This document shows positions 52,549 to 64,000 of a DNA stretch of 64,000 bases, piece after piece (position 1 is the stretch's first letter; the number at the start of each line of letters is the position of its first letter). The stretch is from IMG/VR virus record IMGVR_UViG_3300025011_000026. One strand, 5' to 3'. A program made the translations under genes and the position numbers. Below the pieces are notes generated by a model. The model did not search any database. It saw only the letters and a list, made by a program, of their open reading frames with translations, and was not told the DNA's origin. This stretch comes from a virus. Taxonomy: Duplodnaviria > Heunggongvirae > Uroviricota > Caudoviricetes.

Positions 52549-52896
52549 ATGTTTAATAATGAGATGTTTGAAACTAATCAAATCATTGAAATGAAAGACG
52601 AAATATTTTATGGACTTACAGGAAAACAAACTATTTATTTATTAGGTGGAATAGTGCTTAGTTTATCTGTATTTAATACTGCATTACCTATTATTGCAAA
52701 ACTATTCATTCTACCAAATATAGGTATTCCTACTGCAATTTTAACTAAAACTGATGTAGATCAAGGGATAGTTTCTTTCTTTAAATTCAAATGGAGAGGA
52801 GTGACAAAACAAAATGTTACAATACAATCTTTACCCAAAAGCAAATTATCTTTTAGTAACAAAAGAAGAGCAGACGCTACTTCGATCAAAGTTTAA
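52549..52896 (+). CDS. PrgI/VirB3-like small membrane protein
   Basis: SD AAGGAGG then ATG 52549. KDEIFYGLTGKQTIYLLGGIVLSLSVF matches the conserved (F)GLTxRQ-TM start of PrgI-family proteins. It lies directly upstream of the VirB4-like ATPase. Confidence 0.45.
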   Translation: MFNNEMFETNQIIEMKDEIFYGLTGKQTIYLLGGIVLSLSVFNTALPIIAKLFILPNIGIPTAILTKTDVDQGIVSFFKFKWRGVTKQNVTIQSLPKSKLSFSNKRRADATSIKV

Positions 52897-54322
52897 GTAT
52901 TTATTAAATTCTCTAAATGAACCATTTAAGATTATTTGTAAAACTGACTTAAATCAATTAAACAAAGAAATACAAGTTAATGAGTCAAGTTATTCTCTTA
53001 CTACTAATGCAAATATTTACGAAAATTTGCGTAATTCTGGAATAGACTATACTCAAAATCAATTACTAATTGCAAGTAATATTCAAATAAAGGAGTATAG
53101 AAAGTACATTGGTGTTACTGAAAACAATGTAAAATATTTTGCTAAATCAATCAAGGTTATCCAATTTCCACAAATGCTTTCTACTGGATTCATAAACAAC
53201 TTAATGATTTCTGACACTGAAATTGCTCTTACAATCTTTCCATTGCCACAAGAAGAGGCTGTAAAGGCAGTAAAAAAGAGAATTGATACTACTGAAGCAA
53301 ATGCTAATTGGAAGGCCGTAAAGAACCCTAATCAAGAGTTTTATGTAGAAGATGAAATTGTATCAAAACTTCAAAAGACTATGGTTGATCTTATGGGTAA
53401 TGAGGAAAAACTTTGTATGGTTGGATTATATATTTTAATTAAAGGACAAACACTTGAACAATTAGAAACAAAATCAAAACAAATATCAATGCTTTTAGAT
53501 GGAATGCAAATCAGATTCAAATTCGCTAATTGTGAACATTTTAATTGTTTCAAGAATTTTAGATCATATAAAGAAATTGACTATGTAAAGGAGTTAAAAG
53601 TGTTTTTAACAAGTGTGATTAGTAATTTTTATCCATTTGTTAGATATGTATCAGGTGATGGAATTATAATTGGATATGATTATCAAAATTATCAATTAAT
53701 TAAGATTAATTTTGCAGAGCAATTCAATCTGTCATGGTTCATTTTTGGAATTTCAGGAAGTGGAAAATCATTTGCTGTGAAATCAATTGTCAAGAAAATA
53801 TCTAGTCATAAGAAGATTTATATTCTTGATATTACTGGTGAATACGCCAAATTAAAATCAAAGAATATTATCATTATATCTAAGGATTTTGAGAAATTCC
53901 TACTGTACACCGATTTTAAAGATTGCATGATTGTAATTGATGAAGCATGGGATATTTTAAAAACTGATGCAGTTATTAAAAGAGTGGTAGCAATTGCCAA
54001 AGGATACAGAAAACGAGGAGTAGGTGTTTTAGTCTGCACACAAAACATTGCTGATACAAGTAAAGAGGATATTGAATTAATTATTAAAAACTGTGCTAAT
54101 ACTTTAATTCTTCACTTAACCTCCTTAGAACTTCAACATATTAGTGAATACATGAATATACCATCTCATATTGTCGATTATCTTTCTAGGATTGAAAAAG
54201 GACAAGGATGGATGACCATAGGAACAAAGAAATATGCTTTTAGCCCCATATTTAGTAATGAAGAATATTTATTATTTAATACCAATTATGAGGAAATGAA
54301 AGGGGTTGGTTATAATGGGTGA
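52814..54322 (+). CDS. VirB4-like T4SS ATPase (short form)
   Basis: Walker A FGISGSGKSF, Walker B MIVIDEAW. SD GGAGAGGAG 11 nt upstream. It overlaps the PrgI-like gene by 83 nt. Confidence 0.65.
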   Translation: MLQYNLYPKANYLLVTKEEQTLLRSKFKYLLNSLNEPFKIICKTDLNQLNKEIQVNESSYSLTTNANIYENLRNSGIDYTQNQLLIASNIQIKEYRKYIGVTENNVKYFAKSIKVIQFPQMLSTGFINNLMISDTEIALTIFPLPQEEAVKAVKKRIDTTEANANWKAVKNPNQEFYVEDEIVSKLQKTMVDLMGNEEKLCMVGLYILIKGQTLEQLETKSKQISMLLDGMQIRFKFANCEHFNCFKNFRSYKEIDYVKELKVFLTSVISNFYPFVRYVSGDGIIIGYDYQNYQLIKINFAEQFNLSWFIFGISGSGKSFAVKSIVKKISSHKKIYILDITGEYAKLKSKNIIIISKDFEKFLLYTDFKDCMIVIDEAWDILKTDAVIKRVVAIAKGYRKRGVGVLVCTQNIADTSKEDIELIIKNCANTLILHLTSLELQHISEYMNIPSHIVDYLSRIEKGQGWMTIGTKKYAFSPIFSNEEYLLFNTNYEEMKGVGYNG

Positions 54323-56021
54323 AAAGATAAGCAAGATTAAAGATATGGCAATTAAATCAGGTAAATATTCTGCTTTGTATACTGGACAATTTATTTTAGG
54401 TGGATTAGGCTATGCTGTTCAAATTGCTTCAAATGGAATATTAGGAATGAGCATTCCAGATTATAAACTGCCTAATTTGAAGTTTGGAGATGATAAAACT
54501 TCATTAGGAGATAGGGTAGTGTTAACTCCTAGTAAATTTCTTCTTAAAGGAAATGGCATAGTAATTGGCAAAGACTATAATACAAAAAATGTACTTACTT
54601 ATCCTGTAGATCATTTTGACGATCTTATGAAAAATTTTATTTATGTTGGGTCTCCTGGAAGTGGAAAATCAAATTTAGCAGAAAATATAGCAGTTCAAAT
54701 ATCTAAAATTAATAATTTACCTAATTTTAATACAGCAGGATTTTGTGTGATAGATGTAGCTGATGGAGCATTGATTGATAATATTTTAATGTCTATTCCT
54801 GAAAACAGATTGGAAGATGTAGTTTTATTAGATTTCTCTAATAAAGATTTTCTGCCAGGAATTAACCTTCTAGAATTCGATGAAAAAGTAGAGAAACAAT
54901 TCCCACACTTTATTCATGCTGAAATAATCTCATTCTTTAAAAAACGATTTGGTGAACAAATTGGTTATGCTAGTGAGGATCTTTTATCAAACTCGTTGAA
55001 CGCAATTCTGAAACAAACTGACTATCCTAAAACACTATTAGGAATTATCAAAATGCTAACTGAAGTAGAATATCGTGAACAAATAGTTGCATCTTTGAGA
55101 AAAAATAAAAGGAATGCTTCAGTAGTCAGATATTGGGATAGATTTGAAGCTCAATCTCCTTCTGTTAAAAGAGATATGGTTAAGCCTTTATTAAATAAAG
55201 TTGGAAATTTAACCAATAATGATTATTTAAAATCTATTATATGTCAAAACAAATCTACCATAGATTTTAGAAAAATTATGGATAGTGGCAAAATTCTTCT
55301 TATAAAAGCACCAAAGGTTGCTGTCGGAAAAGTTAATATAGAAATATTGATACCATTGATTCTTTCAAAGTTTTGGATCGCTGCTTTATCAAGATTTGAT
55401 ATTACTAATACTAATTTACGCCGTCCATTCTTTGCCTTTCTTGATGAACCTCAAATGTATCTATCAAATGAAGCAGGAATAGAAGAAATGTTGACGGAAA
55501 TGAGAAAGTATAGATTTGGACTTCATTTTTTCTTTCAATCCCCTGAACAAACGCAACTTCAATCAGTTATCAAAATGATGTTAGAAGTCAATCCTCAAAT
55601 TATATCATTTGCTATGGGTAGAGGTGGAGCACAAACATTATTTAGAGAATTTGAAACTGGTGATGAAGAAAAAGACATGTCAAATAGATATGCAATTCTT
55701 AATCTCCCAAAACATCACGCACTTTGTAGATTTTTATATAAAAGCGAAAAGAGTGTATCTATTATTAAATGCGATCCTCCAATTAAACCTTTGCGTAAAA
55801 AAGTACCTGATATTATTACTGAAAACAGTCAAATGTATTTACGTTCTGTTGATGAAATTATGGAAGAAATTCTTGAATCGGATTATATCCCTGAACCAGA
55901 TTTTAGTTTAGGGGAGGTGAGCAATAATGAACAGCAAAGATTTAATGTTGAAAAAATTGATTGTGGGCCAAAAATACGCCCATTTAACGGCGAGAGATTT
56001 AGAGATAATAAGAAGTATTAG
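54315..56021 (+). CDS. VirD4/TraG-like type IV coupling protein
   Basis: N-terminal hydrophobic segment. Walker A VGSPGSGKSN, Walker B FAFLDEPQ. ATG 54315 has better SD spacing than TTG 54306. Confidence 0.6.
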   Translation: MGEKISKIKDMAIKSGKYSALYTGQFILGGLGYAVQIASNGILGMSIPDYKLPNLKFGDDKTSLGDRVVLTPSKFLLKGNGIVIGKDYNTKNVLTYPVDHFDDLMKNFIYVGSPGSGKSNLAENIAVQISKINNLPNFNTAGFCVIDVADGALIDNILMSIPENRLEDVVLLDFSNKDFLPGINLLEFDEKVEKQFPHFIHAEIISFFKKRFGEQIGYASEDLLSNSLNAILKQTDYPKTLLGIIKMLTEVEYREQIVASLRKNKRNASVVRYWDRFEAQSPSVKRDMVKPLLNKVGNLTNNDYLKSIICQNKSTIDFRKIMDSGKILLIKAPKVAVGKVNIEILIPLILSKFWIAALSRFDITNTNLRRPFFAFLDEPQMYLSNEAGIEEMLTEMRKYRFGLHFFFQSPEQTQLQSVIKMMLEVNPQIISFAMGRGGAQTLFREFETGDEEKDMSNRYAILNLPKHHALCRFLYKSEKSVSIIKCDPPIKPLRKKVPDIITENSQMYLRSVDEIMEEILESDYIPEPDFSLGEVSNNEQQRFNVEKIDCGPKIRPFNGERFRDNKKY

Positions 56022-56691
56022 GGATTTTAAAATATTCTCCAGAACTCAAATTCAAATAATGTTCTTTCAATCCAAACAAAGTTTAACTATTTGCAATCGA
56101 AGGCTGGCTGAAATTGAAAGATTAGAATTTATAAAAAGGACACCAATAGCATTAAATGGGGAATCATTAGTCACTGCGGGAAAATTGCTTTGTCAAATTG
56201 GTGGGGTATATATATCAAAATTACCATCCGACTATACGCATCAACTATTAATAAATGAAATTTATGCTTTATTGTTCAGAGAGCAGAATTTAAATAGAAT
56301 TACTATCAAGCAATATAAACCAGAATTTGTTTACAGATACAAAGATAGAGAAAATGGCAAACAATATATTTTTAGGTCTGATATATTAGTTGTATTAACT
56401 AAGAATAATCAAGATACCACTTTGCTATTCGAAATTGATGCCGGAACAGAAAGCAAGAAACAATTAAGAGAAAAGATTGCTGTTTATGAAAAAGTGTCTC
56501 AAAAAGTGAAAGGGTTTCCTCGATTATTCTGGTTGACTAATACATTGGGATATCGAAAATTAACAAATTTAGATAAACAAATTAATATTGCTCAAGTAGA
56601 AGAATTGAGAAACGACTTTTATATTTTTACTCGTTACCCAGATATGAAGAAGATTAAATTAATTCCTGATATTGTGGTCTGGAAAATATAA
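55927..56691 (+). CDS. replication-relaxation (Replic_Relax) family protein, candidate relaxase
   Basis: LTARDLEIIRSIRDFKIFSRTQIQIMFFQSKQSLTICNRRLAEIERLEFIKR is the typical N-terminal wHTH pattern of the family. Strong SD GGGGAGGTG. It overlaps the coupling-protein gene by 95 nt. Confidence 0.6.
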   Translation: MNSKDLMLKKLIVGQKYAHLTARDLEIIRSIRDFKIFSRTQIQIMFFQSKQSLTICNRRLAEIERLEFIKRTPIALNGESLVTAGKLLCQIGGVYISKLPSDYTHQLLINEIYALLFREQNLNRITIKQYKPEFVYRYKDRENGKQYIFRSDILVVLTKNNQDTTLLFEIDAGTESKKQLREKIAVYEKVSQKVKGFPRLFWLTNTLGYRKLTNLDKQINIAQVEELRNDFYIFTRYPDMKKIKLIPDIVVWKI

Positions 56692-56712
56692 CTGGAACGG
56701 AGATGTTTAATT

Positions 56713-56880
56713 ATGGGATTTATAAGTAATTTAATTAGTGGTTTTGATAAGCCAGAAATTGATATTGATGAATTAGTAAATTTTATAATTGAAGAAACAC
56801 ATGTTAGTAGAGATATTATAGAATTGATTTTAGATACCGAGGAAATTTATTTAAGGATGAGAGGAATTATTATTGATTAA
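56713..56880 (+). CDS. 55-aa acidic protein, last gene of the operon
   Basis: SD GGAACGGAG then ATG. Translation MGFISNLISGFDKPEIDIDELVNFIIEETHVSRDIIELILDTEEIYLRMRGIIID. Confidence 0.45.
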   Translation: MGFISNLISGFDKPEIDIDELVNFIIEETHVSRDIIELILDTEEIYLRMRGIIID

Positions 56881-56886
56881 GATTTT

Positions 56887-56914
56887 AAGGATGATTTAAT
56901 TATCATCCTTTTTT
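56887..56914 (+). terminator. rho-independent terminator of the T4SS-like operon
   Basis: 9-bp stem AAGGATGAT/ATCATCCTT, then TTTTT. Confidence 0.7.
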
Positions 56915-56956
56915 AATATATTTTATAAAAAAATGATTGACAAGGTATTATTTGCC

Positions 56957-56984
56957 TTGTTTTTGTGTATATTTAATGTATAAT
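56957..56984 (+). promoter_or_regulatory. promoter of the DGQHR gene
   Basis: TTGTTT, 16 nt, TATAAT. A perfect TTGACA at 56937 is too far upstream to pair with this -10. Confidence 0.4.
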
Positions 56985-57006
56985 GAACGGAAAGGACTGA
57001 TTTGAG

Positions 57007-58557
57007 ATGAAAATTCTATTTTCTGATAAAGTTAAGGATATTAAATTGGAAGGAGATATACATGATATGAGTAGGAAAAGTAAGGAGAGATTTACACAGA
57101 TGGATATTGGTTTGGTTAATGCAGTAAAGGAAGAGGTGATGAACGGAATGAGTGATAATCACTCAGAAGAAGATCAAGAAATGATTCAGGAGATGGAAAG
57201 CATCACTCGTGAAGAAACTGCCGTTGGTTATGAGAGTGCAAATAGTTTTGAAGAGAATAGTAAAAGTGGAGATGTTATTAATTTGGGTGAGAAATCTATG
57301 CCAGCATTTGGTAGTTTAAGTGAAAAGACTAAAATAGAAGAGTCAAATGGGGATGATAAAGAGCAAATGTCAACTGAAGAATTTAATGAAACTAGAAATG
57401 AAGTTTTAGATAGTAAGAGTGAGTTCGAAAAGAAAAAGGAATTAAGAGAAGCAAATAAATTGAAACGAGATATGAGAAGTAAATTAAAGCAATTAGACAG
57501 TGAAAATGATGATAAATCATGGGAACTAAACAATGTCCAAATCGTCTTGCGTGATGGTAAGCCTTATAAATATTTGGTATCACTATCTTGTATGCAGTTG
57601 GCTGAGTGGTATATCTCTAAAAAGCTGATTTACGATTTTGGCGTACAAAGAGGCAGTAAAACCAATAAAAAAGGCGAGGAAGTACCTATACTTTTTCTAA
57701 AACATTGCAATGATATCAAAACTGCAATTTTAGATGGGTCAATTCACGGGGGAACATTGAGTCTAAATTTGCCTACTGACAATAATACACAACTTTTTTA
57801 TGACGAAGACAATATGACTTTAAGTTCTGACGTTCCCTTAACCATAAATGATGGTTTTCACCGCATATATGCAAGTTATTTGTGGTATAAGGAATTTGTT
57901 AAACCAAATAGTACATGTAAAAGTCCTGAAACGTTCTATTTTCCAGCCAATATTGAGCATATTAGTAGACAAGCGAGTTGTGATTTATTCAAAGAATATG
58001 CGGTTATGGGGAAATCTATTAGTAAGAACAGGATTAGTGTCCATAATGTATTTGATAAAAATTATGAAATCACACAGAGGGTTGCAAAATCATCTCAACT
58101 TCGTGGACGTATAGAAATGATTTCTAATTCAATTAAAAGAAGTAGTCCTTGCATTTTTACTTATGGTACAATATTAAATGGAGTATCTGAATTTAAGGTT
58201 ATTACTCAGGGGAAAGAAGAAGAAGTTGGTAATTTCATCATTGAGTTCTTAAATGAATTAATCGAATTATTTCCTAATCTAATGGGTCATGTTGATTCAG
58301 AAACAAGAGCGATAGAAAAACAAAAGAGTTTTGTACTCGAAAAAATGTTTCAAAATTCTTATTTTGTGTTAGCTAGTCAATTACAAGGTAAAGATGATTG
58401 GAAGAGTAGATTGGCTAAATTGACACAAAACAATTTCCTATCAAGAAGTAATCCAATGTGGGGCTTTTGCCTTAGAGAAGGCGAAAAAATAGTGAATTCT
58501 TCAAAGGTGCAAAAAACAATTACTGAGAAAATTATTGACTATGTGATGGCAAACTAA
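57007..58557 (+). CDS. ParB/Srx-fold DGQHR-type (DndB-like) protein with acidic disordered N-terminus
   Basis: FGVQRG ... LTINDGFHRIYASYLW resembles the QR ... DGQHR signature of DndB/DGQHR-domain proteins. The first ~170 aa are Glu/Asp/Ser/Lys-rich. Confidence 0.4.
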   Translation: MKILFSDKVKDIKLEGDIHDMSRKSKERFTQMDIGLVNAVKEEVMNGMSDNHSEEDQEMIQEMESITREETAVGYESANSFEENSKSGDVINLGEKSMPAFGSLSEKTKIEESNGDDKEQMSTEEFNETRNEVLDSKSEFEKKKELREANKLKRDMRSKLKQLDSENDDKSWELNNVQIVLRDGKPYKYLVSLSCMQLAEWYISKKLIYDFGVQRGSKTNKKGEEVPILFLKHCNDIKTAILDGSIHGGTLSLNLPTDNNTQLFYDEDNMTLSSDVPLTINDGFHRIYASYLWYKEFVKPNSTCKSPETFYFPANIEHISRQASCDLFKEYAVMGKSISKNRISVHNVFDKNYEITQRVAKSSQLRGRIEMISNSIKRSSPCIFTYGTILNGVSEFKVITQGKEEEVGNFIIEFLNELIELFPNLMGHVDSETRAIEKQKSFVLEKMFQNSYFVLASQLQGKDDWKSRLAKLTQNNFLSRSNPMWGFCLREGEKIVNSSKVQKTITEKIIDYVMAN

Positions 58558-58620: not shown

Positions 58621-60339
58621 CTACTTATAAATTCCCCAAACCAATTTTTCACCAGTTTCAGGATGTTTACCAGCCGATTTTTGATTGCCACTGCAACATC
58701 TAGATATGCCATTCGCAGACATATTATATTTTATTGAAGCATCCAACATACTCTCAAAAATTTCATTTGTTGTTATACAAATTACCTTTTTCTTACAAGA
58801 ATCATAATTTTCTGCTTTAGCATTTTTTAAACTATATTCTATTTCATCTTCTGTTTTCAAAAGATATTTTTCATAATACATCCAAACCAATGGCTCACCA
58901 GTTATCGACTTACCTGCTGATTTATGCTTACCTTTACAACATGCAGATATATTTGGTCTTATTGATTCTCTGCCATTGAATGAAGCTTCATATATAGAAT
59001 CAAATATTTCTCCAGTTGTAATGCAAATCACTTTCTCGCATATTTCTTCTTTTGGGTTATAAGAACACCATCCTAATTCTGTTCCTTTTTTAAGATAACT
59101 CCTTATCGCACTACTACTCAAATTTAAATTTTCCCCTATTTTAACTGTGCTTTTAATTCCTTCATTCCATAAACTACATGCTGTTTTAACTAAATTTCTA
59201 CACCCTGCTTCTTGCACTCTTAACCAATCTATATCTTCTTCAGTAAAATTTAATAACTCTGGCAATTTACTATTCATAATACTGTCCCTTATCCACCCTA
59301 TTTCAGACGTTCTGCAATCAATTATTAAATAATTTTTAATTTTATTACTCCTAGCCAACCATTCCTTATCAAAATCATTGATTTGTATATCATCTAATGA
59401 ATCCCACTTACTTTTCGTTTCTTCGTAGTGTTGAATTCCTTGACACTCTATCACACCATTTATTTTATTTATGTATATGTCATATCTATAATTTTCACAC
59501 CATTTAAAAGTAGTTTTTGATAATTGAATGATAAATGTTTCGTGTAATTGTTCTAAAACATTTATCATAACCTTTTCGGGGATGCTCACACCATCTCCAC
59601 ATCTGTTGCAACCGAAACCGTGATTTACTAAGTTAGAAATTTTAATCATTTTTTCATAACCACAATCAGGACATTTAGTTAATACATATTCACCTGACCC
59701 AAAAGAATATTTATGTGCATCATTTATATTCACAAAGAAATGTGTTAAATGAGGATGTGTGACAAAAATAGTATTGCACATATCACAATCTAGACTACCC
59801 TTTTGTCCTCCTGTAAAAGAACTTATATGTTTTTGTTCAGGTTTGTGTTCTGGATTATCTAAACAATTAAACCAATATCCTTTTTTATCTATGCCTTGTG
59901 AAGCAAAACTTACATCTTTGGGAGATAATTTATTACCATCTTTATCAACATTCAGTTCGCAATTCCAACGATTAATTATTATATCTGCTTCATTTTTATT
60001 TTTATTATCATAGCACCATTTGTAAAAAGATGTCCATTGTTTATCTCCTGCGTTTGCACATCTTAAACAATAATATTTTCCATCTTCTCTAACTTGTGAA
60101 GTATAGTCAGACCACCTTATATTTTCTAATAATTTTCCACATCCATCACATTCAATATTTACAAATACTCTGGCCTTATCTTGTAGATCCTCTACTTTAA
60201 CTTTTATTATTGCACCTCGTATATATTTTTCTTCGCCATTCTTATTTATGTATTTTGGTATCTCATATCCTTTTGCTTCATACCATTTAATATTTTTACT
60301 ACCTAACCCAACCTCAGCCTCTTTTGTTATCAATCCCAT
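58621..60339 (-). mobile_element. Zn-ribbon / PD-(D/E)XK-like / NUMOD-like endonuclease gene (free-standing homing-endonuclease-like)
   Basis: Several treble-clef-like Cys pairs (CDGC ... CLRC, CDMC, CPDC ... CNRC). Putative nuclease core YRYDIYINKINGVIECQGIQHY. Two C-terminal repeats VICITTxEIF(D/E)S ... CC(K/S)G ... KSAGK ... LVW. Confidence 0.45.
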
Positions 60340-60487: not shown

Positions 60488-60528
60488 CACAAAACAAAAA
60501 GAGGAATTTATCTTCATAAATTCCTCTT
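60488..60528 (-). terminator. terminator downstream of the lysis cassette
   Basis: 12-bp stem AAGAGGAATTTA/TAAATTCCTCTT, followed on the minus strand by TTTTTGTTTT. Confidence 0.55.
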
Positions 60529-60572
60529 CAAACAAATTCCTTATTCCCAACCAAAACCCTATTTCTCCCTAG

Positions 60573-60705: not shown

Positions 60706-60856
60706 GTAACCCAATCATACCAACACTTTCAGACCCACAATAATTCCATTCGCACAAAAACAACCCTAGAATCAATCAGAATTATCTTCTAGTATAATTG
60801 TTCCACTCGATAAATCAAGACGCTTAAATGGTGGTTTAATTTGTGATATTTTAAAC

Positions 60857-61240
60857 TTATTTTGTTTCCTCTTTTACTTCTTTGGTATCTTCTACTACAA
60901 CTCCATCAATTTTAAATTTACCACTAATAAAACTGGATAATTTAACCAAAACTTCCTTACCATAATAAAGGTAGCCAGACATCATAAGTAAATAAGTTGC
61001 ATTTGATAAATTTATTTCTTTTCCATCTACACTTACAAGAAGTATATTGGGATTTAACTGTCCTATGAAGCAAACACAAATAAAAGAGATCGAAACTACA
61101 ATCCCTTTGAAAACTCCTTGCCATAACTTCGTCTTGTCAAATTGCTTTAAAAAAAATGAATTTACTGAACCCAAGACGATATTCAAAACTATTAAACCTA
61201 AAAGACTGCCACCAAGTAATAGGGTATTTTGATCAATCAT
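60857..61240 (-). CDS. holin
   Basis: 127 aa with three hydrophobic helices and a charged C-tail. It is the last gene after xhlA and the amidase. Confidence 0.55.
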   Translation of the reverse strand: MIDQNTLLLGGSLLGLIVLNIVLGSVNSFFLKQFDKTKLWQGVFKGIVVSISFICVCFIGQLNPNILLVSVDGKEINLSNATYLLMMSGYLYYGKEVLVKLSSFISGKFKIDGVVVEDTKEVKEETK

Positions 61241-61254
61241 TTAAATACATCTCC

Positions 61255-61728
61255 TTAAATTTTAATTCCATATTTCCCTGCGACAAACGCCGATATTAAT
61301 AGACTTATTACAGCCAACGCCTTCAAAACCATCTTCGTATTATTATTTAGTCTAATTTTAGTAATTTCATTTCCTCCTTTTGCTTCAACTTTTGCAAGTT
61401 CATTGTTGCTTTTAGAATTAGATTGTGCAATACTAGAAATTGTGGAAACAAGCAAATTTGTGGATTGATAATTATTGTTTTCTATTCTTGTCAAACAACT
61501 TTTAACTTCTGAAAATTGCAAATCTATTGAATTGAATCTCTCATCATTTGTGGCTCCTCTAATTTGAAGCGCAGTAATTTCATCATCATGGTGATTTATT
61601 TTTTGATCGTGTTTTTCTATCTTTTCAGAATTATAAGATATCCTTTTTTCATGATCCTCAAGTTTAACAATAATTTCATTTTCATCCACTTCCAACACCT
61701 CTTCCATAATTATATTTTTATTTTGCAT
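61255..61728 (-). CDS. xhlA: XhlA-like lysis-associated membrane protein
   Basis: Coiled-coil N-terminus (KLEDHEKRISYNSEKIEKHDQKINHHDDEITAL) and a single C-terminal TM helix (VLKALAVISLLISAFVAGKYG). It is adjacent to the holin. Confidence 0.5.
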   Translation of the reverse strand: MQNKNIIMEEVLEVDENEIIVKLEDHEKRISYNSEKIEKHDQKINHHDDEITALQIRGATNDERFNSIDLQFSEVKSCLTRIENNNYQSTNLLVSTISSIAQSNSKSNNELAKVEAKGGNEITKIRLNNNTKMVLKALAVISLLISAFVAGKYGIKI

Positions 61729-61964
61729 TTGACTTTTACCCCTTTCTGTGTTAAACTAACGTCAATGGATGCAATATTTAGAGTATTGCAAACAGGAGAC
61801 AGTCCAGATCGGGCAATAATCTGGCTGTCATACATACTACAACTGAATAAATAAATAAAATTAATTAGATTTACTAAATGTAAAAATAATATTAAATAAT
61901 TTAGTAGATTAAAAGAGATGTAAAACAAATTACACCTCTAATTTGGCATTAAATAAAAAAAATA

Positions 61965-62705
61965 TTAAGCAAGTTCTAATTTTTTGCAAGCATATCCCAT
62001 TTTAATGATTTGCTTAATTACTTCTTCAGATTTAGATTCAAGAACACGAACAGATAGATAAATATCTTTATCTGTTTTTATTGTTGTGTCTGTTTTTACA
62101 TCTGCCACTTTAAATACAACTCCTTCCTTATAAACTATTCCAAAATAAATACAAACACTTTTAGCAATATTCACAGCAATTTGTTGTCTAATATTTGCAT
62201 CTGCTAATTTAGCATTATCATTTTTATTATCTAAAAACGCAGTTTCTAATAATACTGCTGGCATATTTGTGTCCCTAATTACTGCAAAATTTGATACTTT
62301 AATTCCTCTATTATAGAATAATTGTCCCATCATAGGATTTAAAATTTTAGCAAATCTTTCTGCATTTCCATTCAATCCAAATACATGACAAGTTGTGCCA
62401 AATGCCTGAGAATTAAAGGCATCACAATGGACAGAAAGAAATAAATCTGTTTTATTTGAATTTGCTATTTGACATCTTGTATTTAATGAAGCATTAACTG
62501 AAGATCCATTTCCATTTACAGTCCCTCCATCACGAGTCATAATAACTTTAACTCCATTTAACTCAATTAATATTTTTGCACGTTTGCAAATATCTAAAAC
62601 TATATCTTCTTCATGAAGACCAAAGCCTGAACATCCTGTATCAGCATTTGTAATTGACTGATGTCCTGCGTCTAATGTTATTGAATAACTCATTTTTACC
62701 TTCAT
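61965..62705 (-). CDS. N-acetylmuramoyl-L-alanine amidase endolysin (Amidase_3)
   Basis: LDAGH, LSVHCDAF and VLLETAFLDN, in the order of the Amidase_3 Zn-binding/catalytic motifs. An extra ~70-aa C-terminal domain follows. Confidence 0.8.
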   Translation of the reverse strand: MKVKMSYSITLDAGHQSITNADTGCSGFGLHEEDIVLDICKRAKILIELNGVKVIMTRDGGTVNGNGSSVNASLNTRCQIANSNKTDLFLSVHCDAFNSQAFGTTCHVFGLNGNAERFAKILNPMMGQLFYNRGIKVSNFAVIRDTNMPAVLLETAFLDNKNDNAKLADANIRQQIAVNIAKSVCIYFGIVYKEGVVFKVADVKTDTTIKTDKDIYLSVRVLESKSEEVIKQIIKMGYACKKLELA

Positions 62706-62748
62706 CTCCTAAATTTTATTTATTAATTTACCATTTTCCTATTCATAC

Positions 62749-64000
62749 CTAAACATCTTCCCTAACAAATACAATCTTACTACCTTTATATCCCAATTCA
62801 TTCTTTATAATTTTATACAAATCATAAATCTCTCCTTTATTAGCAAAATCACCTATCATTACCTTATAATAATTTCCCCTTTCAAAAACATAAATATTAT
62901 AATCTAATCCTCTACTAATTAATTCATCCACTAAATTATCAGCATCACTTTCTATCTTTGTAGATAAAACTTGAACAGAATAATATTTATCGGTATCTAC
63001 AATTGTTATGTATTTAGTATCTGTTTTATTTAGGTATTTTGCTGTGATTTTAACTTTTCCTGTTTTATTTGAATTTGCAATTAAAAGACCATTGTTGTCT
63101 ATTGTTGCAATAGATGGATTTGAAGTTGACCATTCTGCTTTGTCGGTAAAATTATATTTGCCATCAACTATTGCTGATAATTGTAAATTAGAATCAACAA
63201 ACACTTTAGGATAATCTACTTCTATGTCTAATCTTTTGATTTTTGGCATTGGATTAGGAGGTGTTATTTCTTTTTCATTAGAATCAACTATTGCCCAATA
63301 TTCATTTATAGGATAACCTTCTGCTGGCATGTAACAATAACCAGAAAACTCTCCCCAGTCTTTACCCCATGAGTTTAAAATTTTAAAATATAATTTATTA
63401 TGTATCATCTTCCATCCAATAATTGAGGTCGCATGATTTCCGTTATAATTTTCTAGTGTTTTGTCAGGAACAGGAAGTATCCCTCCACGATAAAATGAAC
63501 TATACACCCTAAAACTAATATATACTGGCCCAATATTAACAAGAGATTTTTTAATTTCAGATATATTGTGTAATCTGATATAATCTTTTATCCTATGATT
63601 CTTTGCTTCATCAATCATAGACTGTGTTATTTTTGCCTTTAGCTCAGGGTAATTACCTTGATCTGAAAAGGATGAGTTTAAACATGTTCCATTTAATTTT
63701 AACGCAGAAATTGCGTCAATGCTATACATCCCTTCGCCTTCATATCCACCAATACGATGGGCATAAATAAATCCTGCTGAATGATCTTCATTAGGATTTT
63801 CATTATTCAGACCTAATATATCCTTTATTCCGCGAAGAGCATAACTTACGCAACTTGAATATGGCCCTTGATCTAGGACTTCAGGCAATAAATTTGGAAT
63901 TGTATACTCTCCTACATCTAAATTTATAGATTTTATTACATTATTGTTTTCTATAAAATCATTTAGTTCTATTGTGCCAGTTTCATTTTCAGATGCAGGA
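62749..64000 (-). CDS. papain-family (C1) cysteine peptidase - Big_2 - SPOR protein, 5' end outside window
   Basis: Q-x5-C (DQGPYSSCVSYA), His (NHATSIIGW) and N-S-W (ILNSWGKDWG). Big_2-like SNPSIATIDNNGLLIANSNKTGKVKITAKY. SPOR-like YYSVQVLS ... YYKVMIGDF. The frame stays open to base 64000, so the track start at 63888 is not the true start. Confidence 0.7.
   Translation of the reverse strand, partial: PASENETGTIELNDFIENNNVIKSINLDVGEYTIPNLLPEVLDQGPYSSCVSYALRGIKDILGLNNENPNEDHSAGFIYAHRIGGYEGEGMYSIDAISALKLNGTCLNSSFSDQGNYPELKAKITQSMIDEAKNHRIKDYIRLHNISEIKKSLVNIGPVYISFRVYSSFYRGGILPVPDKTLENYNGNHATSIIGWKMIHNKLYFKILNSWGKDWGEFSGYCYMPAEGYPINEYWAIVDSNEKEITPPNPMPKIKRLDIEVDYPKVFVDSNLQLSAIVDGKYNFTDKAEWSTSNPSIATIDNNGLLIANSNKTGKVKITAKYLNKTDTKYITIVDTDKYYSVQVLSTKIESDADNLVDELISRGLDYNIYVFERGNYYKVMIGDFANKGEIYDLYKIIKNELGYKGSKIVFVREDV

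Follow-up and report, generated by a model that had tools for sequence, protein, structure and literature searches.

A predicted Sec-exported C1A peptidase with Big_2 and SPOR domains is encoded beside the endolysin gene of a tailed phage

Gene content of the lysis module

The window (the whole 64,000-nt stretch of phage DNA that we analysed) ends inside a gene for a papain-family (C1) peptidase that also carries Big_2 and SPOR domains (Table 1). The open reading frame is cut by the window end, with its start codon and signal peptide lying beyond, and translation of the (-) strand over positions 62749–63999 gives an open frame of 416 codons with its stop codon at 62749–62751. We obtained the full-length protein of 456 residues (P0001) from identical metagenome contigs, and catalytic residues are numbered according to this full-length sequence. 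The C1 gene comes after the tail-fibre genes. Its GC content is in line with that of the window, a point against recent acquisition as cargo.

Table 1. Features of the lysis module in the window
Feature	Position	Strand	Basis or remarks
C1-Big_2-SPOR gene, 3' 1252 nt	62749..64000	(-)	Residues 41-456 of the 456-aa P0001
LGxIP-bearing N-terminal extension and papain-fold catalytic domain	63277..64000	(-)	Pfam/PHROG matches, invariant columns, AF2 model, xylellain 3OIS match
Codon of Gln84	63868-70	(-)	Catalytic
Codon of Cys90	63850-52	(-)	Catalytic
Codon of His229	63433-35	(-)	Catalytic
Codon of Asn249	63373-75	(-)	Catalytic
Big_2 Ig-like spacer domain	63037..63204	(-)	Pfam envelope, residues 306-361
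SPOR domain, C-terminal	62752..62988	(-)	Residues 378-456; beta-alpha-beta-beta-alpha-beta predicted
Amidase_3 endolysin	61965..62705	(-)	Pfam 2.3e-37; PHROG endolysin families
Terminator-like hairpin	61914..61939	(-)	Just past the amidase stop codon
XhlA-like 157-aa protein	61255..61728	(-)	Coiled-coil-like N-terminal region, one C-terminal TM segment; weak HMM support
Holin-like 127-aa membrane protein	60857..61240	(-)	At least 2 TM segments; weak Phage_holin_4_1 match
Terminator-like hairpin, 14-bp stem	60498..60529	(-)	Downstream of the holin-like gene

Directly downstream of the C1 gene, and in the same direction, is the Amidase_3 endolysin gene, as the original prediction had described; the gap is 43 nt and contains no terminator-like site. 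The likely start of the amidase is an ATG at 62693, preceded by AGGAG, and the protein has no signal peptide, no transmembrane segment and no wall-binding domain recognised by Pfam. We considered whether peptidase and amidase might have a SPOR-like domain in common, in the C-terminal tail of the latter, and dropped the idea on finding no similarity in the last 51 residues (E = 11). Of the XhlA and holin labels given earlier to the next two genes, the transmembrane topology fits both, but the profile scores are sub-threshold (XhlA 17 bits, cutoff 34.7; Phage_holin_4_1 14.8 bits, cutoff 22.2). Recognisable holins occupy the position of the holin-like gene in two homologous cassettes (L006 and L013), and the lysis unit probably ends at the hairpin downstream of this gene. 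The C1 gene had been placed at the head of the lysis cassette; it does lie in the lysis module, but not strictly at its head, because in the full contig, outside the window, a gene for a Peptidase_C92-like protein of 159 residues lies 48 nt upstream of it.

A xylellain-type C1A peptidase

All three domains of P0001 score above their Pfam cutoffs: Peptidase_C1 (PF00112) with an E-value of 4.2e-15 (56.9 bits, cutoff 20.7), Big_2 (PF02368) with 8.9e-9 (35.6 bits, cutoff 22.8) and SPOR (PF05036) with 9.5e-10 (39.1 bits, cutoff 21). The Big_2-like and C-terminal SPOR-like modules proposed from the sequence are thus both upheld. So is the intact Gln-Cys-His-Asn(SW) pattern, since none of Gln84, Cys90, His229 and Asn249-Ser250-Trp251 varies in two alignments, one of 15 homologues and one of 18, with identities down to 21–28%. 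The Gln-to-Cys spacing of 6 residues reads as papain-like, and the LGxIP motif of the N-terminal extension is conserved. No CHAP or NlpC/P60 profile in Pfam matches the protein at E ≤ 0.1.

The papain fold is confidently predicted by an AF2 model (mean pLDDT 84), and the top 50 Foldseek matches in the PDB are all C1 peptidases. In the same model the Big_2 region is all-beta (about residues 297–374), and the SPOR domain is made up of strands at residues 379–387, 409–414, 417–425 and 448–452 and helices at 390–402 and 431–441. Among solved structures the best match by both Foldseek (2.8e-15, TM about 0.75 on the target) and phmmer (6e-9) is xylellain, a C1A cysteine protease of Xylella fastidiosa (3OIS). 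The two proteins share the catalytic residues, a short N-terminal extension and the lack of a long I29 prodomain, but their identity is only about 23–24%, and xylellain has no signal peptide, Big_2 domain or SPOR domain and lies outside any lysis cassette. By profile, residues and modelled fold, P0001 is a family C1 peptidase of subfamily C1A, xylellain type, with predicted peptidase activity. Horizontal transfer of xylellain-type C1A genes into tailed phages has been noted before, and the phage copies carry no assigned function in that work (PMC10380794).

Predicted export

On the full-length protein, the N-terminus that is missing from the window is a Sec-type signal peptide, as identified by a hydropathy heuristic and by conservation. 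It is present in all members of the closest clade of P0001 and absent from most of the wider relatives. We rejected a lipoprotein signal in view of the poor lipobox and the lack of conservation of the cysteine at position 19. Because of this Sec-type N-terminus the C1-Big_2-SPOR protein is predicted to be exported and not virion-borne. The original prediction had called for the upstream sequence in order to see the N-terminus, and what it revealed agrees with the export part of the exported-protease reading offered there.

Canonical endolysins accumulate in the cytoplasm and depend on the holin for their release; with its signal peptide, P0001 would instead be of the exported type. This departure from the classical holin-dependent model counts against reading the protein as an accessory lysin.

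Linkage to endolysin genes

In relatives with identities down to 33%, the C1 gene adjoins an endolysin gene of the Amidase_3, Amidase_2 or GH25 type. C1 is followed by Amidase_3 in the loci of P0001, P0003 (56% identity), P0005 (55%), P0009 (41%) and P0020 (50%), and C1-SPOR by Amidase_2 in those of P0011 and P0012. The order is the other way round in the P0169 locus, where Amidase_3+PG_binding_1 precedes C1-SPOR, and in the isolated phage THSA-485A, where a GH25 endolysin precedes C1. The spacing between C1 and endolysin is 24–55 nt (100 nt in L018), and no terminator-like site separates them in the two loci scanned (the window and L002). The lysis-cassette position is conserved in L002–L020 and in IMG/VR loci, and linkage to the endolysin holds among phages whose tail modules differ, and with three endolysin types. 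In one locus (L009) an integrase gene lies between the tail genes and C1, and C1 stays beside the amidase. Because adjacency to the endolysin is conserved in divergent phages and survives this integrase insertion, the data support assignment of the C1 gene to the lysis module and not to the tail module. Membership of a separate transcription unit, such as a tail module, had been named in advance as a result that would speak against a lytic role, and the C1 gene segregates with the endolysin instead.

A recognisable peptidoglycan hydrolase gene is found at most two genes away in only about a quarter of 41 non-redundant viral loci. SPOR-bearing C1 genes are paired with amidases in 13 of 14 loci, although this pairing may carry little information because no endolysin type is commoner in Firmicutes phages than the amidases. 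Megablast of positions 60800–64000 against GenBank phages gave no match, and tblastn against 50,697 phage records matched only THSA-485A and three records of large or jumbo phages, two of them unannotated, so that the annotation of cultured phages offered little guidance. A search of genome contigs with the close clade found no relative.

A large family built from lysin modules

The Peptidase_C1 profile is matched by 144 of the 145 nearest family representatives. Many of these carry wall-binding modules–Cu_amine_oxidN1 in 42, SPOR in 19, SLH in 16 and PG_binding in 6–and other fusions among the 145 are to Amidase_2 (3), Amidase_3, Glucosaminidase, M23 and a GH-like domain. One C1 module is joined through choline-binding repeats to Phage_lysozyme, Amidase_2 or GH25. 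Labels of "GH25" and "Glucosaminidase" on short C1 proteins came from crude HMMs and were discarded as doubtful. In several phage contigs a C1-containing protein adjoins a confirmed holin; for example, fusion proteins with choline-binding repeats come directly after confirmed holins in L038 and L049. In L021 a Phage_holin_1 holin (6e-25) is encoded two genes away from a C1+Cu_amine_oxidN1 protein, and the 10.9 kb examined (5 kb each side) yielded no further peptidoglycan hydrolase; this one locus carries the whole argument that C1 can be the single lysin.

The C1A module turns up repeatedly in the lysis cassettes of phages and prophages whose hosts are of the Clostridia type, among them Clostridium butyricum with its fused lysin WP_058371781. 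It stands by itself, is partnered with classical lysin domains or is joined to them in one protein; a fused relative was also found in a Clostridiales MAG. These endolysin-type architectures in the wider family favour the suggestion, made from the sequence alone, that the protein could be a lytic enzyme. Public annotation calls family members "glycoside hydrolase family protein" or "peptidase", and Pfam misses the C1 domain in some of the fused forms. Relatives without wall-binding domains are often found among genes unconnected with lysis (NrdD, DNA polymerase, head genes), so we judge the family to be functionally mixed, the mixture lying in those relatives. A pooled PHROG scan of nine more loci, which does not resolve individual loci, gave a few endolysin matches and many to replication or head genes. 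Taken as a group, the evidence points to a large, uncharacterised set of C1 proteins that are built and positioned like phage lysins.

A candidate accessory lysin

Our favoured explanation is that P0001 is a Sec-exported, SPOR-anchored accessory lysin of the xylellain-type C1A class that cuts wall peptide alongside the amidase, and that it belongs to a large clade that supplies phages of Clostridia-like hosts with a catalytic module for their lysins. We lean towards this reading as a whole, clade included, though not strongly. It is in keeping with a location beside lysis genes and a holin or holin-like gene, seen in the window and in relatives, and with the combination of an enzymatic and a wall-binding module (C1 and SPOR here; Cu_amine_oxidN1, SLH, PG_binding or choline-binding modules in relatives).

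The peptidase would be made late in infection from the same transcript as Amidase_3, co-transcription being suggested by the short gap without a terminator, and would be exported through Sec by means of its signal peptide. In the wall it would be held by the SPOR domain, with Big_2 as a spacer. The established ligand of SPOR domains is glycan that has lost its stem peptides, which is what amidases produce, and by analogy we infer that the SPOR domain of P0001 binds denuded glycan. An N-terminal extension of about 50 residues, left after removal of the signal peptide, may keep the enzyme latent in the way that the pro-region of xylellain suggests. Once the holin gave the cytoplasmic amidase access to the wall, the peptidase would cut the peptide of the sacculus, and the two enzymes would dismantle it together. 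Candidate substrates are peptidoglycan peptides, or wall and S-layer proteins, and the choice between them is not settled; we regard the stem peptides or the cross-links as the likeliest target, and the enzyme may act specifically at septa, as the original prediction suggested. C1A enzymes are proteases of L-peptide chains. To our knowledge no C1-family peptidase is known to cut peptidoglycan, and we found none shown to do so in the literature searched.

Alternative roles

The strongest competitor is that the C1 enzyme is a true protease acting on a proteinaceous coat (S-layer, wall-anchored proteins or cellulosome scaffolds) while the amidase handles the peptidoglycan. It would open the last barrier to virion release, at the same place and time as an accessory lysin. 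C1A enzymes are proteases by default, and one of them, Cwp84 of Clostridioides difficile, is a wall-anchored protease that processes the S-layer precursor; Cwp84 is, however, absent from the 60 sequence matches listed and from the best 50 structural matches of P0001. The near-constant pairing or fusion of C1 with a true peptidoglycan hydrolase also suits a coat protease, as does the presence of cohesin- and dockerin-bearing phage proteins beside its relatives, but in L021 a C1 protein with a wall-binding module takes the lysin slot by the holin, and in the fused lysins C1 takes the position of the CHAP endopeptidase in known two-domain endolysins. The SLH and Cu_amine_oxidN1 modules of the relatives are typical of S-layer-bearing Clostridia and Paenibacillus (10.64898/2026.09.23.753664). 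On balance we consider a coat protease unlikely, while giving it real weight. A stricter form, which we hold only tentatively and as a shade less likely still, is that C1 is not a peptidoglycan hydrolase at all but a dedicated outer-coat protease, recruited by its SPOR domain to amidase-stripped glycan and constituting a separate lysis step in monoderms, a counterpart of the spanins of Gram-negative hosts or of LysB in mycobacteria.

It is improbable that the gene is cargo (a moron), coding for a secreted, wall-anchored protease that serves the lysogen in nutrition, competition or receptor trimming and that lies beside the lysis genes by chance. The signal peptide would suit such a protein, prophages of Gram-positive hosts commonly carry cargo between their tail-fibre and lysis genes, and an integrase adjoins the C1 gene in L009. 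Set against this are the tight linkage to three types of endolysin across different tail modules, the lack of any compositional anomaly in the gene, and the many relatives in which the signal peptide is missing and lysin domains are attached. A protease of the virion or tail that digests surface structures on entry, which the original prediction had allowed for, would fit the frequency of Big_2 on virion proteins, the tail and head proteins among the PHROG and BFVD matches of the Ig-like part and the position after the tail-fibre genes, but it is very improbable given a Sec signal peptide that argues against packaging into particles assembled in the cytoplasm, and a gene that segregates with the endolysin.

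Comparison with known enzymes

An accessory lysin of this kind would have its closest counterparts in two-enzyme or two-domain Gram-positive endolysins such as LysK and the lambdaSa2 type, in which a CHAP or NlpC/P60 endopeptidase is combined with an amidase or glycosidase and a wall-binding domain. The plan of an N-terminal clan CA cysteine peptidase followed by a wall-binding domain is shared, and the C1 module likewise has a neighbour near a holin, or in relatives a fusion partner, of the Amidase_2, Amidase_3, GH25, lysozyme or glucosaminidase kind. In contrast to those systems, the module of P0001 belongs to family C1 and not to CHAP or NlpC/P60, it is a separate Sec-exported product, and its lytic role is predicted.

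Sec-exported endolysins such as Lys44 of the Oenococcus phage fOg44 have a cleavable signal peptide and are exported before the holin fires. They too are lysis-cassette enzymes with an N-terminal signal peptide, but they are muramidases or amidases that act as the main lysin of the phage, whereas P0001 is a C1 peptidase with a cytoplasmic amidase as its partner. A C-terminal SPOR wall anchor on a lytic enzyme, in the setting of a Firmicutes-type host, is also seen in the amidases CwlC of B. subtilis and PlyGspY412. SPOR is a rare wall-binding domain among endolysins, PlyGspY412 being an example (PMC11674121). In the known SPOR lysins the domain is attached to Amidase_2 or Amidase_3, whereas in the window the peptidase carries it, and no wall-binding domain is recognised in the neighbouring amidase.

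Cwp84 resembles P0001 in being a C1A enzyme with a signal peptide and a wall anchor in a Clostridia-type envelope. It is a housekeeping protein of the host with CWB2 anchors and a prodomain, whose role is to mature the S-layer protein, whereas P0001 is the SPOR-bearing product of a gene in a phage lysis cassette; we know of no link between Cwp84 and phages or lysis.

That C1 is not a usual catalytic domain of lysins, as the original prediction noted, agrees with the endolysin surveys searched. We found nothing relevant on C1 or papain-type endolysins in the literature searched, and no functional description of the C1-Big_2-SPOR group in the searchable literature.

Implications for phage lysis

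The catalytic domains of endolysins form a short and well-catalogued list that provides the raw material for engineered antibacterial enzymes. Our results point to the phage C1 group as a class of lytic enzyme that the endolysin surveys searched do not list. The phage in the window is a phage of a low-GC anaerobe, and tractable systems for the family exist in the THSA-485A prophage of Thermoanaerobacterium saccharolyticum and in the prophage lysins of C. butyricum. If the C1A module is lytic, it would add a catalytic class to the endolysin list and show that public annotation has been hiding that class. If its target is instead a surface protein, it would reveal an undescribed step in the lysis of S-layered Gram-positive bacteria.

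A papain-family peptidase gene upstream of the endolysin gene

The protein encoded at the end of the window has Peptidase_C1 (4.2e-15), Big_2 (8.9e-9) and SPOR (9.5e-10) domains, all over the curated Pfam thresholds, and its catalytic region is matched along its whole length by a PHROGs 'peptidase' family. By protein search we found a full-length form, P0001 (456 amino acids), which is 100% identical across the window fragment; the groundwater-metagenome contigs encoding it match the window and reach 92 kb. Gln84, Cys90, His229 and Asn249-Ser-Trp (full-length numbering) form the papain catalytic set with the expected spacing, and none of them varies in two alignments, of 15 and 18 homologs, that extend down to 21–28% identity. 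The catalytic pattern, and the Big_2-like and C-terminal SPOR-like modules described in the original prediction, are therefore borne out. AlphaFold2, given 18 sequences, produced a model (mean pLDDT 84) in which the catalytic domain is confident, residues 297–374 are all-beta, and residues 379–452 have a beta-alpha-beta-beta-alpha-beta order. The top Foldseek match in the PDB is the Xylella fastidiosa protease xylellain (3OIS; 2.8e-15), followed by cathepsin B-type enzymes, and xylellain is also the top phmmer match among PDB sequences. With the defining features that computation can assess in place, the protein is a xylellain-type C1A member of family C1; we rejected a CHAP or NlpC/P60 identity.

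The N-terminus, which lies beyond the window, was recovered with P0001. Residues 1–26 (MKINKLILILVLSLTSLFCSNSIYSA) comprise a basic start, a hydrophobic core of 13 residues and then a conserved Ala-[Asn/Asp/Lys]-Thr; hydropathy and conservation throughout the close clade identify this stretch as a predicted Sec-type signal peptide. A lipoprotein is unlikely, since the lipobox is a poor one and conservation does not extend to the Cys at position 19. The signal peptide and the catalytic domain are separated by about 50 residues that include a conserved LGxIP(S)P motif, and full-length P0001 has no long I29-type prodomain.

Organization of the lysis cassette

On the full contig, tail-fibre-like genes are followed by genes for an 867-aa protein, a 159-aa Peptidase_C92-like protein, the C1 peptidase and the Amidase_3 endolysin, and then by a terminator-like hairpin, an XhlA-like gene, a holin-like gene, a second terminator-like hairpin and a 572-aa HNH-like endonuclease gene, beyond which DndB-like, Replic_Relax and TraG/DUF87-like genes lie on the opposite strand. 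The gap between the C1 gene and the amidase gene is 43–55 nt, according to which start is taken, and a scan for terminator-like sites found none between them. The GC content of the C1 gene is 29.8% and that of the window 28.6%, which we treat as equal. The predicted position of the C1 gene, upstream of and co-directional with an Amidase_3 endolysin gene, is confirmed. For the predicted XhlA and holin the topology fits (a single C-terminal TM segment in the 157-aa product of the gene after the amidase; at least two in the 127-aa product), but the names are weakly supported, the XhlA and Phage_holin_4_1 matches both being below the Pfam thresholds.

Peptidase_C92 is a family of permuted papain-like amidases of the YaeF/YiiX type. 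A hairpin and a strong RBS precede the 159-aa gene, and a homolog (27.3 bits) occurs near the C1 gene of another contig, L013; its product may add a third wall-active enzyme to the C1–amidase unit. L013 also has a related 562-aa endonuclease-like gene directly upstream of C1. Because such genes flank the cassette in the window and C1 in L013, the HNH-like element appears to change position relative to the lysis module. Judging from the plasmid-type genes facing the cassette, the whole element may be a phage-plasmid or the carrier of a mobilisation module.

Coordinates of features in the window and in loci with related C1 genes
Feature	Location	Strand	Details
C1-Big_2-SPOR open frame	62749-64000	-	416 codons; stop 62749-62751; runs past window end
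Amidase_3 gene	61965-62705	-	next after C1, co-directional; Pfam 2.3e-37; PHROGs endolysin families
Amidase residues 185-246	61965-62150	-	C-terminal stretch of the endolysin
Terminator-like hairpin	61939-61914		after amidase stop
Treble-clef/HNH homing-endonuclease-like gene	58621-60339	-	572 aa; phrog_4538, 3.8e-68; directly past lysis cassette
Plasmid/conjugation-type genes	52814-58557	+	facing lysis cassette; DUF87/TraG-like ATPase, 571-aa P-loop protein, Replic_Relax, DndB-like
Peptidase_C92-like gene	L002:9473-9952		contig carrying P0001; 159 aa; just past window end, 48 nt upstream of C1; 23.7 bits, cutoff 27
Genes after C1 (P0020 relative)	L019:8435-10465		96-aa Amidase_3 fragment, DUF5659, GIY-YIG homing endonuclease, full Amidase_2
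Cohesin/dockerin genes adjoining C1-SPOR	L012:133-897; L014:1970-2674		phage genes with cohesin and dockerin domains
C1 + choline-binding repeats + Phage_lysozyme	L038:4989-6623		545 aa; after holin (phrog_1129, 2e-24)
C1 + choline-binding repeats + Amidase_2	L049:4986-6590		after holin (phrog_297)
C1 + choline-binding repeats + GH25	L095:4001-5700		Clostridiales MAG

Conserved pairing with endolysins

Relatives of P0001 are encoded beside endolysin genes. The genes for P0003 (56% identity to P0001) and P0005 (55%) lie directly upstream of an Amidase_3 endolysin gene with holin-like genes after it; that for P0009 (41%) is followed by Amidase_3 and a Phage_holin_6_1 holin, and that for P0020 (50%) by an Amidase_3 fragment, with Amidase_2 three genes beyond. 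Among proteins without a signal peptide, P0011 and P0012 (C1+SPOR; ~35%) precede Amidase_2, and P0169 (C1+SPOR; 33%) follows Amidase_3+PG_binding_1. In the isolated Thermoanaerobacterium phage THSA-485A, a GH25 endolysin is directly followed by a 277-aa C1 peptidase (37%) with neither signal peptide nor SPOR. Membership of a tail unit, which the original prediction named as refuting, is answered by the P0005 locus: the C1 gene is not part of one, since there an integrase separates it from the tail-fibre chaperone gene and it remains with the amidase. Pairings with Amidase_3, Amidase_2 and GH25 thus tie the peptidase to three unrelated endolysin types, a pattern expected if it serves in lysis rather than riding along as a passenger in one lineage. 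In 13 of 14 distinct loci, a SPOR-bearing C1 gene lies no more than three genes from an N-acetylmuramoyl-L-alanine amidase gene (8 backed by Pfam, the rest by purpose-built HMMs). We take this as no more than suggestive, since phages of this kind commonly carry amidases in any case. At the P0020-type locus L019, the endolysin gene looks as if it was disrupted or replaced through a homing endonuclease.

C1 proteins in or beside the lysin slot of other viruses

Scanning IMG/VR yielded 74 viral loci (41 non-redundant), with genes called simply as longest ORFs and individual loci checked by Pfam and PHROGs. The fusions at L038, L049 and L095 join C1 modules to three second catalytic domains, a clear case of putative lysin domain shuffling. 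The L095 module is 86% identical to that of P0173, an L038-type protein; this type is a Clostridium butyricum prophage protein (e.g. WP_058371781) that is annotated in public records as 'glycoside hydrolase family protein' or as 'hypothetical protein'. Pfam does not report Peptidase_C1 in the L038 and L049 proteins (E ≤ 0.001) or the L095 protein (E ≤ 0.01), and its misses in the first two are part of the reason why the module has gone unnoticed. At locus L035, C1 is followed by a holin (phrog_199, 1.4e-30) and a Glucosaminidase. At L021, represented by seven related contigs, C1+Cu_amine_oxidN1 precedes a TM protein and a Phage_holin_1 holin (6.4e-25), and no other called gene in the 10.9 kb surveyed has a peptidoglycan-hydrolase match; this single-lysin argument concerns one locus type, over 5 kb on each side.

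Within two genes of C1 in the 41 loci, Pfam recognized only nine peptidoglycan hydrolases (Amidase_3, 3; Amidase_2, 4; GH25, 1; Glucosaminidase, 1) and six holin-family matches. In nine further loci, scanned as a pool, PHROGs matched replication and head genes along with a few endolysins. Because of these neighbors and the scarcity of hydrolases, relatives without a wall-binding domain, some of which lie on contigs of jumbo phages and giant viruses, probably do not all serve in lysis.

The wider C1 family

When 1.84 billion cluster representatives were searched by phmmer with the catalytic region, 765 proteins reached E ≤ 1e-10. Among the best 150, most lack a signal peptide and share a conserved GAIPSPxDxRDY start, the signal peptide being confined to the clade nearest the query. 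Pfam, run on 145 of these 150, detects Peptidase_C1 in 144, together with Cu_amine_oxidN1 (42), SPOR (19), SLH (16) and PG_binding_1/2/3 (6) modules and fusions to Amidase_2 (3), Amidase_3, Glucosaminidase, Peptidase_M23 and an Rv2525c-like glycosidase domain (1 each). Gram-positive endolysins and autolysins use these extra domains for wall binding and as catalytic partners: SPOR, although rare, is recognized as a wall-binding domain of endolysins (PMC11674121), and in Paenibacillus SLH and copper-amine-oxidase-N are predicted wall-binding modules of cell-wall hydrolases including phage endolysins (bioRxiv 10.64898/2026.09.23.753664). The best matches among predicted viral structures, uncharacterised phage proteins named 'Copper amine oxidase', 'Peptidase', 'Peptidoglycan binding-like' and 'N acetylmuramidase (fragment)', are these same combinations of C1 with a wall-binding or an enzymatic domain.

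Many short relatives (P0119, P0122, P0124, P0134, P0143, P0144, P0162 and others) end in a basic amphipathic helix of 15–30 residues, e.g. FWKWLVKIINTIINWIIHKK, where the wall-binding domain would be, recalling the C-terminal helices with which some endolysins act on membranes. The cohesin and dockerin genes at L012 and L014 suggest hosts with cellulosomes, and phage proteins that may plug into them.

Proposed function

At the level of sequence, the protein combines an intact C1A apparatus, a predicted export signal, SPOR, conserved endolysin adjacency and lysin-type family modularity, and it most likely works like an exported-type accessory or second endolysin. Its cleavage of peptidoglycan is putative, and we therefore stop short of classing it as a proven endolysin. 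The C1 gene would be co-transcribed with the amidase gene and the peptidase exported ahead of holin triggering, with SPOR anchoring it to peptide-free glycan; binding of denuded glycan is established for other SPOR domains (PMC6895207). Peptidase and amidase would act in concert, the former cutting the peptide component of the wall and the latter generating more SPOR ligand. The N-terminal extension could keep the peptidase latent, by analogy with xylellain, whose N-terminal region is reportedly described in this light in its structure paper.

The main rival keeps this picture and changes the substrate: a protease for S-layer or other wall-anchored proteins, forming a lysis step of its own, would suit the default activity of C1A enzymes, the precedent of Cwp84 (the wall-anchored C1A protease that matures the C. 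difficile S-layer protein), the SLH-type anchors on family members and the cohesin- and dockerin-bearing phage proteins adjoining some relatives, but two points count against it: how L021 is arranged, and the CHAP-like position that C1 takes in fused lysins. The close, conserved linkage to the endolysin and the normal composition make a cargo (moron) role unlikely, and a virion-associated protease, the other alternative in the original prediction, conflicts with the predicted signal peptide.

Xylellain-type C1A peptidases acquired by tailed phages have been reported with their function unassigned (PMC10380794). In the openly searchable literature, surveys of endolysin, autolysin and papain-like domains make no mention of C1 as a lysin module, in keeping with the expectation that C1 is not the usual phage-lysin peptidase. 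The putative C1 lysin gives lysin biology and enzybiotic engineering a solid lead that can be tested, and the finding would gain in interest if the substrate were a surface protein.
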